Assembly: GCA_017477355.1 (NCBI GenBank)
Contig: JAFUWA010000022.1
Location: 1,550 to 65,549 of the forward strand
Direction of reading: 5' to 3'
DNA length: 64,000 bases
Source: Clostridia bacterium
GTDB taxonomy: Bacteria; Bacillota; Clostridia; TANB77; CAG-508
Below, in pieces: positions 30,528-37,223 of this stretch. Within the stretch, counting starts at the first letter, position 1, and every line of letters begins with the position of its first letter. The notes below the pieces were generated by a model. The model searched no databases. It saw only the letters and a list, made by a program, of their open reading frames with translations, and had not been told where the DNA came from. The position numbers and the translations under genes were made by a program.

Positions 30528-33500
30528 ATGGCTAAAAAAGGTGGATTAGGTGGACTTGTTGGGAAAGCGAGAGATAGAGCAGATAATGGAAAAGATTATG
30601 ATGTTATGAATCCAGAAGCAGAAGACCCAAACTTAGGATCATCAAAAAAACAAGGTGGAAAAGCAGCAGGAAAAGCAATAAAAGCGGCAGGAAAAGCAGT
30701 AATCAAAATAGGAAAAGCTATTTTTAAGTTACTAGCTAGTATTCCTTACGTAGGCTGGATATTAATTATTATTCTAGTATTAGCAATTATATTTATCGTT
30801 GTAAAAACGATGTGGGATATGATGCCAGGAATGATGAAATCTAAACTAGCAGATTTGTTTAAAATAGATGTAAGTAGTTGGATTTCAAGTGGAGCAGTAG
30901 CATCATTAGATGAAAATTATGAAGATATCATAGGAGTTGCAAATTATCTAGAAGAAATGAATTATAGTTTAGTAGGTGAAGGATTTGTTACACCGAAATT
31001 AAGAACGAAAAGTTCAGATATCTTTACAAGTGAAGAATTAATTTCTAACCAAGATGAAAACGGCTATACATATAAAGCAGATTCTTCAGGAGTATTCCAT
31101 TTTTATGATGCAGGTGGAAATATTGTTCCAATCAAATACTATGATAGTATAGGACAAACAGTAGATAATACAACAGGAGAAGTAATCTCAGGAGAAGAAT
31201 ATACAGATGAATTTGGAATAATAAGATCTACGGAGGCAACTTCTGAAGATGCAGACGAAACAGATAGAGGAAAAATTACAAAAATTGAAAAAGAAGATTT
31301 AAAACATTATAGTTTATTAAGGTCATATTTGTTATCAAATTATAGAATTTATAATTTAAAAAATGCAGATGAAGATACATTAAAGAAAATAGCAGATGCC
31401 TTTAAGACCCTAGGAGGAAATAATGATGCTTGGGCAAAAGGATTAATTAAGTTATATACAGCAGAAGGAGGAATAGCAAATGGCCACTGGTGGTGGGGAA
31501 GACAACTATTAGGAGAAGTAGCCAAAATAGATGGAAAGACATTAGAATTGAAAAAAGGCTGGTTCAACAATTCAATGAAATTTAGCATTGAGGGTTGGGC
31601 ACCAAGGTATGGAATGAGCTTAGAGTTCCTATTATCATTACATTTAGGAACAGGAGCACCAGACTTAGTAAATGCAATGTTACAAAACTTTGATACAGAA
31701 ATACAAGTATACTTAGATGATTCAGGAGAATCACAAGTAGAAGCAAGGTATGTAGATCCTGCAAAATCTGGAAAAGACCCAGGCTCAGGAGATTCTATTG
31801 AAAAAGTAAAAGCAGTATTATCAGATACAGGACATGACTGGGCTAGTGCATTGGTAGATGATCATAATATTACATGGTTAGATTTTGTTAATGATTGGGC
31901 ACTAACAAAAGAAGCTTGTCAAGATTTATTAACAGATCCAAGTTTAACATTAACAAGTCCAGATGGATGTTTAGGATCAGAATCTGCACAGATTTCTGTA
32001 ATAGAATGTGCAACATCAGAAGATAATCGTATTATATTTGGATTAATTCAATCAAATAGTAATATTTTGGCAACATACGGTATTTATACTAGAGATGATG
32101 CAGAAGTTTATGAGATTTTTAATAGTTATTATGAATATGAATTTAAAGATGGAAGAGATAGAACAAAATTTAATGCGGTTAATTGTACAGTAAATAAAGG
32201 AAAAGATAATAGTGCGCTACAAAATGATAAATATACAGAATTTAAAGATAAAGCAGTAGAGCTTGGATTTACCGGAGAGATGAATGCAAGTAGCTCTAAA
32301 GAGTTTGAGGCTTTTTGCGATACTTATGTAGATCCTTATGGAATGTATAAAGAAGGTATTATTTATAAAGTAAAGAGAGTAAAAAACTATAATACATGGA
32401 GTTCAGAATATGATGGTAATGAAGATATTGAATTTGAATGGTATTCTTACAAATATTTAATCTATAAAGTAGGAAAATATACTCAAAATATTGATTGGTC
32501 AACTGGAAGATATAGCGATCCTTCAACAACATATACTGGGACAGAAGAATGGGTTGACACAGTTATGGTAGAATTTATCATAAGAGATAAAACATATGCA
32601 GAATTGGAAGCAGATGGATTAGTTAATGAAGACGGACATGCAGATACATCATTAGCAAAATGTTCAAGTAAAGCTCCAGATGAGGGCGGAAAGGATAAAT
32701 GCTGTGCTGTTTGCCAAAAATATGTAAAAGCAGCAGTACAAGCAATGGCATCAGTTGCGGATAAGAAATATAGCTCTTATACTCCATATATTGCAAGAGT
32801 AGTAGGAAGCTGGTTTAGAGATACCTATTTTGTAGTACCAGAACATGCAGATGCAGCAATTTTAGAATATGCAGGAAGTATGGAAGCAAGATCATATGAT
32901 GCAGATGGAGATGGATATATTTCTGATGATGAACAAGAAGATACAATTCAATCAACAAATCATCCAGAAGTAGATATGAAAAATGCATATGGTAAAGATG
33001 CAACATTTGTATTAGTAGATGAGGAGTATTTAGGAGATTCAGGAGAATATTGGACAGCTTATATTATGAAGACAGAAGGTGGAAGTGAATACCAATTGTA
33101 TGTATTAAAGAGCGATGGTAGAACATCTAATACAACGATGGAAGACTTTTTGGCAACAGGAAAAATAGATGGAGTACAAGCCAAAGTATCAGGAAGAGCT
33201 GTAACAGGATATCCATCAAAAGAAGACGCAGAAAAAGATGGATGGGCATTTGTTAAGAAAGCCCAAACACAAAACATGGAAATGTTTGCAGCAGAGCATA
33301 CTATAGGAAGAGAAGAATCAGATAGAATGGATGATGACATTCTATGGTCAGCATATGGATTTGATAGTAATGGTTCATCAACAAATTGGGAAAAGGTAAA
33401 AAGATCTGAAGGAAATGTACAAGTAAATGATTTATATGACATTATTTATGGAGAAGGATCAGACGGAGATGATGGATCAGGTATTTTCTATCAAGTTCAA

Positions 33501-36500: not shown

Positions 36501-37223
36501 TTGCCTGGAGACTACATGAGAATGCAAGTAATTGATAATGACGAAGCTCTTGTAGATGATGTTGAAAGATTCTTCGATATTCCAGAATCAAATGTTAAGA
36601 AACTTGGCCAAGTTTCACAGACTTATGAAGCTTGGGAAGGTGATATCGAAATTTTAGCAGAAACAATGATTCGTGAGTGTGGATACGATTATGCTATTAA
36701 AGGAAGATGTCATGATGAAACAGAAGAAGATTTCGTAGCATATTGTATGGTATATTCAGTTGTTAATAAATGTATTCCAGCTAATAAAGATACTCACTAT
36801 GGAAATCTTTATGATGAATCTAGAACAGATAGATCACCTCTTGCACAAGTTGTAACAAGTGCTTGGTACGGTGTAAGAGATGCAATGGAGGCTTATATTA
36901 GTGGTAGAGCAGCTGCAACATATACAGAAGCAGAGTATAAATATGCAGAATTTGCTTTAACTTATGACTGTACAAGTGTTGCAAAACCTTATGCTACTGA
37001 TCAGTTTGATTCATATTCAACAGCTCATGGATATGGTGAGTCACTTCCGGTAGGAGATCCAATTCCACAAATCATGTGTCAACAAGGTGGTTTAGGAGAT
37101 GGTGCTTCTGGACAAGACACAATTTACTTAGTAGGATATGCTGATATGAATAGAGATATGATTTTTGGAAAAGGTGATGAAGTATTCGGAGTTGATGATT
37201 GTTACAAAAATAGAATACCTTAA
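30528..37223 (+). CDS. Giant 2231-aa membrane-anchored multidomain cell-wall hydrolase (PrgK/CwlT-like role): SGNH/GDSL esterase, Gly/Ser linker, C39-like cysteine peptidase, SleB/CwlJ-like domain
   Basis: Lys/Gly-rich cytoplasmic N-terminus and a single TM. YWIGDSWTVG is a GDSL motif near aa 1300. GGGSAGSSSSGGSGGTGGSGG linker. GMGCGIYSVTSM...GGHFICFCGVTSDG is a Cys/His peptidase. DIEILAETMIRECGYD near the C-terminus resembles the Hydrolase_2 family. Confidence 0.55.
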   Translation: MAKKGGLGGLVGKARDRADNGKDYDVMNPEAEDPNLGSSKKQGGKAAGKAIKAAGKAVIKIGKAIFKLLASIPYVGWILIIILVLAIIFIVVKTMWDMMPGMMKSKLADLFKIDVSSWISSGAVASLDENYEDIIGVANYLEEMNYSLVGEGFVTPKLRTKSSDIFTSEELISNQDENGYTYKADSSGVFHFYDAGGNIVPIKYYDSIGQTVDNTTGEVISGEEYTDEFGIIRSTEATSEDADETDRGKITKIEKEDLKHYSLLRSYLLSNYRIYNLKNADEDTLKKIADAFKTLGGNNDAWAKGLIKLYTAEGGIANGHWWWGRQLLGEVAKIDGKTLELKKGWFNNSMKFSIEGWAPRYGMSLEFLLSLHLGTGAPDLVNAMLQNFDTEIQVYLDDSGESQVEARYVDPAKSGKDPGSGDSIEKVKAVLSDTGHDWASALVDDHNITWLDFVNDWALTKEACQDLLTDPSLTLTSPDGCLGSESAQISVIECATSEDNRIIFGLIQSNSNILATYGIYTRDDAEVYEIFNSYYEYEFKDGRDRTKFNAVNCTVNKGKDNSALQNDKYTEFKDKAVELGFTGEMNASSSKEFEAFCDTYVDPYGMYKEGIIYKVKRVKNYNTWSSEYDGNEDIEFEWYSYKYLIYKVGKYTQNIDWSTGRYSDPSTTYTGTEEWVDTVMVEFIIRDKTYAELEADGLVNEDGHADTSLAKCSSKAPDEGGKDKCCAVCQKYVKAAVQAMASVADKKYSSYTPYIARVVGSWFRDTYFVVPEHADAAILEYAGSMEARSYDADGDGYISDDEQEDTIQSTNHPEVDMKNAYGKDATFVLVDEEYLGDSGEYWTAYIMKTEGGSEYQLYVLKSDGRTSNTTMEDFLATGKIDGVQAKVSGRAVTGYPSKEDAEKDGWAFVKKAQTQNMEMFAAEHTIGREESDRMDDDILWSAYGFDSNGSSTNWEKVKRSEGNVQVNDLYDIIYGEGSDGDDGSGIFYQVQTTNNVKQVEDAQRGETNALVKYLFKYRQFYLYDGSEERGVEVEHDKQRVLYGYQDYINKQYDIEGKYYIGKIIADEWDIRDCPSGITRENFYKYTGLLDSAGNGNNGKLRQYYGSNWKSEVIGLLNKYGRSALRQSYSWATISSWIDDEDLANQWFDWQLDMYYMDKYGVNIPSYYGENSKSKSDFIKLEYDPRDPDLVGTVEITKSSLSVFSILENTGTLDAEYAYRDFKELIVELNYFDKEDLSSKFEEVFTWVLPEVSACGWPNRPWDKQNVDYGTLIQSHSTYDALGVFDQQTLAGDVDPSKIYWIGDSWTVGMVEAGVIEGNVVMVNGGGNGTYVQNDRVLAEVGASANTARLGQHNAPSDTSAIVVALGKNNPKYTIEVTKNYIDNLVTKYPNTRIFVLKLSYYGKNPLSSEETSDIVDQFNSAMQSYCSSKNNVYFVDPTGTINDTANKTLKNTYNASDNLHMNNEGYKAWYNDIIAAVGGGSAGSSSSGGSGGTGGSGGTGGSGGSGTFSVADGSGDAEHIITANGIQYMQFNQSGKWGSVNVYSGDTLIRTDSGDTTLSGMGCGIYSVTSMLSAYVQDVNPKKTCQWMHTNIGNSAFNNSSNRGSSMKKILAENGINAEWSDGSESKLKEAFSAGKPVIINIKPGSRTWTTSGGHFICFCGVTSDGTVYTADSVTGGGDRLAHKYGGDFDSAISKLWADVSAGSGVRFLIPDKAPDGVLATQATMGANGDVYTAIPFQGYEADQKVASPVTGKILEIGTYPRLNIYTGEMEDVEYIKIKVMDDAKYFEKILGTNNTDFGYDPKDEVKDSYPGVAEALDLFYKEYENVCDGYTVVLDGFDVDLSVGAPEGEDPDYPGNFGAYDKNEVHALYNSGQMEIRKLKEEAKSAAPFYVYQGVGSKTFPETNFIDFENDNALTGKATYIADPDSIAGYYVKEGKYIGVTVTSDEALVANPDPSTPSTPTDPADEEEEESSPLDDKLTYTYADFAEIEDLPGDYMRMQVIDNDEALVDDVERFFDIPESNVKKLGQVSQTYEAWEGDIEILAETMIRECGYDYAIKGRCHDETEEDFVAYCMVYSVVNKCIPANKDTHYGNLYDESRTDRSPLAQVVTSAWYGVRDAMEAYISGRAAATYTEAEYKYAEFALTYDCTSVAKPYATDQFDSYSTAHGYGESLPVGDPIPQIMCQQGGLGDGASGQDTIYLVGYADMNRDMIFGKGDEVFGVDDCYKNRIP

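Follow-up and report, generated by a model that had tools for sequence, protein, structure and literature searches.

The window analysed here, a 64,000-nucleotide stretch of contig JAFUWA010000022.1 from an uncultured Clostridia bacterium, contains a gene that encodes a membrane-anchored protein of 2231 residues, referred to below as the query. The protein displays an SGNH esterase module, a papain-like C39_2 peptidase module and a C-terminal domain on a large conserved scaffold, and its gene lies within a cluster of the Gram-positive type IV secretion system (T4SS) type. It is a two-slot modular, VirB1-like giant built on an orphan scaffold, and it belongs to an unnamed family that is so far restricted to uncultured gut Clostridia. 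We favour the view, although with as much doubt as confidence, that the query is the cell-wall-lytic subunit of a chromosomal MPF-FATA-like apparatus of the T4SS type in this low-GC gut bacterium, and a functional analogue of VirB1, PrgK, TraG and CwlT. The known VirB1-like proteins of Gram-positive bacteria are tethered to the membrane and expose between one and three enzyme domains on the outside of the cell; they interact with VirB8-like proteins and breach the wall so that the secretion channel can pass (PMC12857230, PMC11753425). The query likewise has a membrane anchor followed by extracellular enzymatic domains, as all its enzyme modules are C-terminal to its transmembrane helix, and its gene is located inside a T4SS cluster that includes homologues of VirB4, VirB3 and VirB6.

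The start codon of the query, an ATG, stands 8-16 nt 3' of GGAAGGAGG, a strong ribosome-binding site, and a stop-free run of 2231 codons has a chance probability of ~1e-88 at the local base composition. A preliminary description of this DNA had raised the concern that the open reading frame (ORF) was an assembly chimera. This is refuted by three relatives from independent assemblies (P0001, P0003 and P0002), which keep the domain order of the query across the Gly/Ser linker; P0001 displays 54% identity to the query at 100% coverage and P0003 47% identity at 99% coverage. A protein of 233 residues from an ENA contig of 3328 bp (P0032) is 100% identical to the C-terminal domain of the query and, since it derives from another public assembly, indicates that a strain identical or closely similar to this one was independently sampled. 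Residues ~72-95 form the sole transmembrane segment of the 2231-residue protein. The preceding 71 residues contain 15 Lys/Arg against 7 Asp/Glu, together with 12 Gly, and the positive-inside rule thus predicts an N-in topology in which ~2100 residues are outside the membrane. Part of the Lys/Ala/Gly-rich cytoplasmic segment is encoded by a 12/21-bp in-frame tandem repeat at 30657-30702.

Two enzyme modules with intact active sites, separated by the Gly/Ser linker, follow the orphan core of the query. Lipase_GDSL_2 (PF13472) matches aa 1301-1468 over the full length of the model (E=1.4e-9, 39.2 bits against a Pfam cut-off of 32.9), and the SGNH catalytic set is present as Ser1304 of the GDS motif, Gly1366 and Asn1368 of LGKN (G-x-N) and Asp1457-N-L-His1460 (D-x-x-H). 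Indeed, GDS and G-x-N are kept in 21 of the 21 family members that contain an SGNH module. The whole-family profile, when compared with the PDB, recovered only the SGNH structure 2hsj (E=1.5e-5), and single-sequence PDB searches with the SGNH and C39 modules identified no relatives. The SGNH module, which matches phrog_14008, is the sole part of the query with a match in PHROGs. Peptidase_C39_2 (PF13529; clan CA) matches aa 1561-1673 (E=3.9e-10, 40.9 bits against a Pfam cut-off of 24), where the catalytic residues Cys1563 (GMGCG), His1655 (SGGHF) and Asp1672 (TADS) occur in this order; their equivalents are kept in P0001-P0003, P0026 and P0029. Judged by these residues, both modules look catalytically competent. 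The Lys/Gly-rich cytoplasmic N-terminus, single transmembrane helix, SGNH/GDSL domain, poly-Gly/Ser linker and papain-like Cys/His domain of the preliminary description are thus all borne out: composition and the sole hydrophobic helix (aa 72-95) support the first two, profile searches place both enzyme modules above their Pfam cut-offs with catalytic residues intact, and the linker between them maps to aa 1476-1506. The DNA that encodes the linker is an imperfect 9/18-bp tandem repeat of 85 bp (34961-35045), and this repeat and the in-frame repeat at 30657-30702 are possible sites of length variation.

It is plausible that the SGNH module de-O-acetylates peptidoglycan, a substrate that we infer; this would fit the finding that O-acetylated sugars inhibit muramidases (PMC11323569, PMC6174289). 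With respect to the peptidase, a bacteriocin-processing C39 domain proper (PF03412) was considered and rejected, as the protein contains neither an ABC transporter domain nor a PF03412 match. That the C39_2 module alternates with NlpC/P60 in the same position of the family argues for a role at the cell wall rather than in bacteriocin processing.

This alternation is part of a more general organization. A database search identified 31 relatives of 1500-2400 residues, all from metagenomes or from metagenome-assembled genomes (MAGs) of Clostridia, while a HMMER search with aa 96-1290 over 1.84 billion cluster representatives returned 450 clusters at E<=1e-3, 182 of them at E<=1e-30. A scan of species-representative genomes revealed 65 distinct loci, and all 65 are in MAGs of uncultured gut Clostridia, among them Ca. 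Scatovivens, sampled from rabbit, sheep, mouse and human hosts. None of the sources consulted for ten diverse family members gives the protein a name, and NCBIfam has a model neither for the query nor for the other giant proteins of the cluster. BLAST mapping and a 32-sequence alignment resolve four kinds of segment, which comprise the core, slot A (aa 1290-1735), a beta-rich region (aa 1737-2020) and slot B. The core and the beta-rich region are the constant, family-defining part of these proteins, and the enzymes are interchangeable cargo. Among the 84 members with a recognisable copy of each of the three anchor motifs, slot A holds NlpC/P60 only in 39, SGNH only in 13, C39_2 only in 13 and nothing recognisable in 9; five members, including the query, combine SGNH with C39_2, three combine SGNH with NlpC/P60 and one contains both peptidases. 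NlpC/P60 is thus present in 43 of the 84 members, and a papain-like peptidase of either type in 61, but the two types occur together only once. This near exclusion argues for functional equivalence and a cell-wall peptidase role for C39_2, and the two peptidase types appear, on this distribution, to be interchangeable.

Slot B is more diverse, with at least eight unrelated domain types in 81 members. Curated models match Phage_lysozyme2 (4e-22; 11/81 members), Lysozyme_like (2.6e-24), Hydrolase_2 (4.9e-9; five members), Phage_lysozyme and, weakly, Glucosaminidase. Apart from one metallo-beta-lactamase oddity, the recognisable slot-B domains are glycan-cleaving. Variants of these proteins also coexist in a single organism. 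The MAG Tb.RUG.39 (L037, JAEESU010000019.1; also L051, L057, L063 and L068) contains at least seven distinct paralogues, three of which are in tandem within 28 kb and end in differing tails (P0031-type, P0163-type and Hydrolase_2-type).

The query gene is a constant component of a cluster of genes for a secretion machine, being the 22nd of 24 co-directional, tightly packed ORFs that extend from 6509 to 38531 (~32 kb). Homologues of the 1988-, 1006-, 184- and 320-residue proteins encoded immediately upstream are its most constant neighbours, found within 10 kb in 30-35 of 67 loci; the genes further upstream in the cluster are present in 20-23 of the 67 and the 201-residue bitopic protein downstream in 23. 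Two of the five VirB2-like array proteins match T4SS_pilin/TrbC (PF18895/PF04956), and VirB4 matches the CD1110, Mbov_0397 and TraC families, the first two in its C-terminal part. The proposal that the query is a cell-wall-remodelling protein of a Gram-positive-type T4SS was therefore upheld by its synteny and by its VirB2-, VirB3-, VirB4-, VirB6- and NlpC/P60-like neighbours. It should be emphasized, however, that relaxase, type IV coupling protein (T4CP), FtsK and integrase domains are absent from the ORFs of at least 300 residues in the window, and that the flanks of the cluster are housekeeping genes (glycosyltransferases, SHMT, a PHP protein and ClpB), as they also are in two further loci, L068 and L069. 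The apparatus is therefore probably not a classical conjugation system.

The core, which the preliminary description had listed as about 1200 residues of unknown domains, indeed contains no domain matched by Pfam, NCBIfam or PHROGs. It is not filler, however, but the conserved part by which the family is defined. Its hallmark motifs are GWAPRYGMSLEFLLSLHLGT (355), CCxxCQxY (725), YIARVVGSWFRDTYF (754), QVEDAQRGETN (998) and SILENTGTLDAEYAYRDFKELIVEL (1204); motifs kept across the family include GWAPRYGMSLEFLLSLHLGT, YIARVVGSWFRDTYF, QxEDAQRGETN and SILENTxTLDAxYxYRDFKELIVEL, in addition to many invariant aromatic, glycine and polar residues. Mapping and alignment place the conserved core at aa 22-1285, with a variable insert at ~aa 480-680. 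In the AlphaFold2 (AF2) model of the core (pLDDT 77.2, pTM 0.67), aa 589-687 of the insert (nt ~32292-32588) form four antiparallel beta-strands of 20-25 residues each; the inserts of relatives differ. Two folds suggested by Foldseek were rejected. A gasdermin-type fold with long beta-hairpins, the best PDB match, had E=0.19, and a single-stranded RNA phage maturation protein fold, the best BFVD match, had E=0.019 with TM-scores of 0.04-0.06. Both are noise and arise from the long beta-strands at aa 589-687. By tblastn, the core matched none of 72,556 plasmid records and none of 50,697 phage records.

The beta-rich region, modelled by AF2 at a pLDDT of 80-93, displays the motifs SPVTGKILEIG ... 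GYYVKEGKYIG ... GDYMRMQV ... VERFF. The first two suggested a degenerate M23/LytM domain, which was rejected, as Pfam gave nothing at E<=10, the family profile found no M23 in the PDB and Foldseek returned no match at E<1. Comparison of the whole-family profile with the PDB identified nothing for either the core or the beta-rich region.

The C-terminal tail of the query represents the second-largest slot-B type (17 of 81 members), in which Q2031, Y2033, D2039, L2043, A2044, E2050 and N2080 are invariant. It is most likely a glycan-cleaving domain, because relatives fill the same slot with lysozyme-type domains. The more specific resemblance to Hydrolase_2 (SleB/CwlJ) that had been proposed did not survive scrutiny. 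The isolated tail matched nothing in Pfam at E<=10, and the whole protein gave no PF07486 match at E<=1; in a wider tail alignment only two of eight tails paired with PF07486 at E=0.021, which falls short of the cut-off. Searched against a sequence database, the tail profile found only eight relatives, none of them annotated and none with PF07486. Neither this profile nor that of a homologous subgroup (A1, A7), which hhalign pairs with it at 99.8%, recovered SleB from the PDB, and the AF2 model of the tail, which is helical (pLDDT about 70-88), had no Foldseek match at E<1. In five other family members the slot of the query tail is filled by a genuine Hydrolase_2 domain (Pfam E=4.9e-9), but hhalign of the 17-member query-type profile with the tails of these members gave a probability of 6.8% over 39 columns. 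The pairing is in register, matching an 'LA-x5-E' helix and then a 'V-N-K/R' helix. Alignment with SleB/CwlJ sequences covered the first 20-residue helix only (2.3% probability) and is a lead only. The likeness to SleB/CwlJ thus comprises a first-helix motif, D-hydrophobic-E/D-hydrophobic-L-A-x5-E, and the V-N-K/R helix that follows it, with the invariant Glu2050 of the query at what we take to be the position of the conserved Glu of Hydrolase_2. The query tail differs in being longer, Cys-rich and nearly orphan, and all significance tests fail. The SleB-like signal is a real short motif of 20-40 residues, not a demonstrable domain. The features of the query and of its cluster are collected in Table 1.

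Table 1. Segments of the query protein and other genes of the cluster, in window coordinates
Feature	Position (nt)	Strand	Basis or remark
Complete ORF, 2231 aa + stop codon	30528..37223	+	Shine-Dalgarno GGAAGGAGG upstream
Lys/Gly/Ala-rich N-terminal segment, predicted cytoplasmic, aa 1-71	30528..30740	+	charge/composition
Single transmembrane helix, N-in signal-anchor, aa 72-95	30741..30812	+	hydrophobicity
Conserved family-defining ectodomain core, aa 96-1290	30813..34397	+	alignment; no library match
SGNH/GDSL esterase module (slot A), aa 1296-1475	34413..34952	+	Pfam, catalytic residues
Gly/Ser linker, aa 1476-1506	34953..35045	+	imperfect tandem repeat
Peptidase_C39_2 papain-like cysteine peptidase module (slot A), aa 1515-1700	35070..35627	+	Pfam, catalytic residues
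Second family-conserved, beta-rich region, aa 1737-2020	35736..36587	+	in all members
Mostly alpha-helical, Cys-rich C-terminal domain (slot B, 'query type'), aa 2030-2231	36615..37220	+	putative glycan-cleaving
Five small VirB2/TrbC-like membrane proteins, cluster start	6509..8718	+	signal sequence + hairpin of two transmembrane segments
VirB3-like protein, two transmembrane segments	8748-9116	+	topology
Bitopic protein, 432 aa	9120-10418	+	topology
VirB4-like ATPase in three ORFs	10430-10882, 10863-11330, 11353-12432	+	150, 155, 359 aa
VirB6-like polytopic protein	12482-13723	+	topology
Bitopic proteins	13740-15287, 16354-17940, 19073-19978	+	topology
NlpC/P60-like protein, 356 aa, N-terminal transmembrane helix	17984-19054	+	22.4 bits, below Pfam cut-off of 23
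Giant polytopic protein, 1988 aa, 8 N-terminal transmembrane segments	19979-25945	+	no Pfam/NCBIfam/PHROG match
Giant polytopic protein, 1006 aa, 6 transmembrane segments	25942-28962	+	no Pfam/NCBIfam/PHROG match
Bitopic proteins, 184 aa and 320 aa	28990-30509	+	topology
Two bitopic proteins 3' of the query, 201 aa (37238-37843) and 224 aa (weak LolA_like)	37238..38531	+	cluster end

Several of these neighbours merit comment. The 1988- and 1006-residue proteins, which recur in 31 of 67 loci, look like VirB6-like polytopic anchors with huge ectodomains. The bitopic proteins encoded at 28990-30509 and 37238-37843 are candidate VirB8-like partners of the query. The NlpC/P60-like protein is a second, separate candidate wall peptidase, with homologues in 20 of the 67 loci. 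The minus strand immediately 3' of the cluster (38588-39862) encodes a protein that combines PG_binding_1, LysM and a Peptidase_M14 zinc carboxypeptidase; this peptidoglycan-active enzyme is probably encoded by a chromosomal housekeeping gene. In another locus (L001, 16879-20780), tyrosine integrase, HTH_17 excisionase-like and REP_ORF2-G2P-like genes lie directly downstream on the opposite strand, and may mark either a small element that has integrated there or the edge of a mobile one.

The favoured reading proposes the following mechanism, in which we infer the enzyme substrates, the docking role and glycan cleavage by the tail. The core and the beta-rich region would dock the protein to partners encoded in the cluster, with the giant VirB6-like proteins and the possibly VirB8-like bitopic proteins as candidates, and would keep the enzymes extended into the thick wall. 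There the SGNH esterase would strip O-acetyl or similar esters that block glycan cleavage, the C39_2 peptidase would cut stem peptides or cross-links, a role that falls to NlpC/P60 or CHAP elsewhere, and the C-terminal domain, with its invariant Glu2050, would cut glycan strands. The outcome would be a local breach in the peptidoglycan of the producer, through which the apparatus and a filament of VirB2-like subunits could assemble.

A number of observations weigh against this interpretation. The enzymes are separated from the anchor by 1200 residues, a distance unneeded for a membrane-proximal breach, and at least eight shuffled tail types and seven or more paralogues in one genome, three of them in tandem, exceed what would be expected of the housekeeping of a cell's own wall. 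The query displays no homology, in sequence or in fold, to any characterised VirB1-like protein: Foldseek with both models misses PrgK (8S0U), and SLT, CHAP, LytM, NlpC/P60 and Glucosaminidase are all without a Pfam match in the query. More than half of the protein is without an assignable function, and the glycan-cleaving role of the tail is deduced from its position in the family. In addition, two frameshifts divide VirB4 in the window into ORFs in three different frames, and the apparatus may thus be inactive here; in two other loci (L020 and L021) VirB4 is an intact ORF of 659 residues that spans all three. Neither frameshift junction contains a long homopolymer, and the frameshifts could reflect either a pseudogene or an assembly or sequencing error.

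It could be argued that the wall to be opened is not that of the producer. In such a model the anchored protein, or an ectodomain released from it, attacks the wall of a contacted recipient, host or prey bacterium, the giant core extends the reach of the enzymes, and the swappable modules track the wall chemistry of the targets. We regard this as a live possibility, although an unlikely one. It would explain why the enzymes are at the membrane-distal end, beyond the 1200-residue core, when PrgK at maximal extension reaches only the middle of the wall (PMC11323569). It is also consistent with the polymorphism of the family (three module types in slot A and at least eight in slot B), with the MAG in which at least seven paralogues include a tandem trio with differing tails, with the lack of a relaxase or coupling protein between housekeeping flanks, and with a tandem VirB2-like array as in the systems of Patescibacteria (PMC12102498). 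The T4SS of Patescibacteria, whose wall-lytic enzymes beside virB4 are required for epibiotic growth, would be a parallel. An SGNH esterase, moreover, would help against foreign O-acetylated walls. The protein, however, displays no cleavage site or secretion signal besides its anchor, and hence no sign of release; no immunity gene was identified; several mobile copies would explain the expansion of paralogues equally well; and module turnover is also a feature of ordinary autolysins and conjugation hydrolases. A more speculative proposal, which we consider improbable, is that a relaxase-less, pilin-array apparatus of the T4SS type uses giant polymorphic tethered proteins to penetrate the walls of other bacteria, and represents the Firmicutes counterpart, or the donor lineage, of the T4SS of Patescibacteria epibionts. 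If this were true, the orphan core would represent a novel module for docking or for extending reach, and the range of targets would be set by the exchangeable esterase, peptidase and lysozyme domains.

Another view, that the query is simply the hydrolase of an ordinary integrative and conjugative element (ICE) whose relaxase and coupling protein are outside the window or too divergent to be recognised, seems decidedly doubtful. The families that best match VirB4 (CD1110, Mbov_0397 and TraC) are indeed ICE or conjugation ATPases, some MAGs hold several copies, an integrase, an excisionase-like helix-turn-helix gene and a Rep gene are just downstream in one locus (L001), and of 1268 plasmids in which VirB4 has a match, 639 are typed as conjugative. 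Such an element is difficult to reconcile, however, with the absence of relaxase, T4CP, FtsK and integrase domains noted above, with housekeeping flanks in three loci, with a closest plasmid cluster that is typed as non-mobilizable and with the lack of any plasmid match to the core. That the cluster or the ORF is a decaying relic or an artefact (an inactive cluster, a chimera or an incipient pseudogene) is very improbable. The split VirB4, intact elsewhere, and the short tandem repeat in the linker DNA could be cited in its support, but the frameshifts may be sequencing errors and an imperfect repeat of 85 bp is too short to mislead modern assemblers. Furthermore, the 6.7-kb frame is open against a chance of ~1e-88, the catalytic and family-invariant residues are all retained, and three independent assemblies display the same architecture. 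Finally, Phage_lysozyme2 and Phage_lysozyme modules in relatives, the phrog_14008 match of the SGNH module and a size that recalls tape-measure proteins and tail lysins could suggest a phage-derived lysin, a tail-associated protein or a general autolysin that is beside T4SS genes by chance. This explanation is largely refuted and scarcely credible, as the phage records contain no match to the core, BFVD provides no fold match, the window contains no phage structural genes, and the protein has an N-in membrane anchor and constant synteny with genes of the T4SS type.

Gram-positive T4SSs are poorly understood, and how they cross a wall of 30-100 nm, on the side of both the donor and the recipient, is an open question; PrgK, the best studied of their hydrolases, extends no further than mid-wall. 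The present family offers features of use here. Its constant scaffold exceeds any known VirB1-like protein threefold in size, and at least 11 enzyme types have been exchanged in its two defined slots in the course of evolution. In the literature searched, no VirB1-like protein is described as carrying an SGNH module and no T4SS hydrolase as carrying an esterase module, and a search on giant T4SS proteins in Clostridia found nothing relevant. The family makes it possible to ask directly if modifications of the wall, O-acetylation for example, restrict the assembly or the target range of a T4SS, and its enzyme modules are candidate lysins against gut Firmicutes. The cluster itself, chromosomal, relaxase-less, equipped with a VirB2-like array and found only in MAGs of gut Clostridia, bears on the origin of the T4SS of Patescibacteria.

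With respect to characterised systems, the closest parallel in layout is PrgK of the Enterococcus faecalis plasmid pCF10 (DELTA class, 8S0U), in which an intracellular N-terminal part and a transmembrane helix are followed by LytM, muramidase and CHAP domains, the muramidase resembling phage tail lysozymes (PMC11323569). The query similarly has an intracellular N-terminus, a single transmembrane helix and serial wall-active ectodomains that include a papain-like peptidase; its gene is likewise in a Gram-positive-type T4SS cluster, and 11 of 81 relatives carry a domain of the phage-tail-lysozyme type (Phage_lysozyme2) in slot B. In contrast to PrgK, which is much smaller (transmembrane helix at 254-274, CHAP His at 828), the query has >2100 extracellular residues, comprising an orphan core of 1200 residues and an orphan beta-rich region of 290 in addition to SGNH and C39_2 modules where PrgK has LytM and CHAP, and its apparatus is without relaxase and T4CP but with VirB2-like genes. 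The query also resembles TraG (pIP501, ALPHA), Orf14 (Tn916, BETA), CwlT (ICEBs1) and TcpG (pCW3), in which a glycan-cleaving domain is tethered together with CHAP or NlpC/P60 (PMC12857230, PMC11753425), the latter being the domain found in slot A of 43 of 84 query-family members. These proteins, however, have two domains within a few hundred residues, belong to conjugative elements and lack an esterase, whereas the query has an esterase and no SLT, muramidase or glucosaminidase that profile models recognise. Thus, the size and domain combination of the query are, as had been suggested, unusual, the protein being far larger than PrgK, TraG, CwlT or TcpG. We class it as working like VirB1-like proteins but place it outside classes ALPHA to DELTA, because the searches recovered neither an SLT, CHAP or LytM domain nor a match in fold.

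A cultivable relative of the cluster may exist in Clostridium. The closest annotated relatives of the VirB4 linked to the family (40% identity) are encoded by plasmids of C. botulinum and C. beijerinckii. On the C. botulinum plasmid pINGR16-02E1 (L070, NZ_KT897276.1), which is typed as non-mobilizable, a related VirB4 cluster at 9225-33049 contains T4SS_pilin-like genes, a 682-residue protein with C39_2 and 3D domains, a 1927-residue ORF with choline-binding repeats, a ParA-like gene and a gene for a VirB11-like ATPase. By its appearance, this cluster represents a T4SS subclass that has yet to be characterised. The 682-residue protein (WP_269467655.1, 'C39 family peptidase') is encoded two genes 3' of the closest annotated VirB4, the position of the hydrolase, and joins Peptidase_C39_2 (6.6e-17) with a 3D domain that cleaves glycan (5.1e-16). 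In the stretch that surrounds the catalytic His, the C39_2 domains of this protein and of the query can be aligned at 37% identity (E=5e-6), but the protein is a third of the size of the query and has no orphan core, beta-rich region, SGNH module or query-type tail. The presence of this fusion in the hydrolase position argues that pairing a C39_2 peptidase with a glycan-cleaving domain is, as it seems, the norm for this subclass of T4SS.

In the organization of its genes, the cluster resembles the T4SS of Patescibacteria such as Ca. Southlakia epibionticum, in which lytic enzymes adjacent to virB4 are essential for epibiotic growth (PMC12102498). VirB2-like pilins are treated as absent from monoderm MPF-FATA systems, while tandem arrays have been reported in Patescibacteria (PMC12102498). 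The Patescibacteria belong to another phylum, and the peptidase and lysozyme homologues downstream of their virB4 are separate small proteins; their system nevertheless shares with the cluster described here a chromosomal location, the absence of a relaxase, derivation from MPF-FATA, tandem arrays of VirB2-like genes and adjacent wall-lytic genes (PMC12102498).

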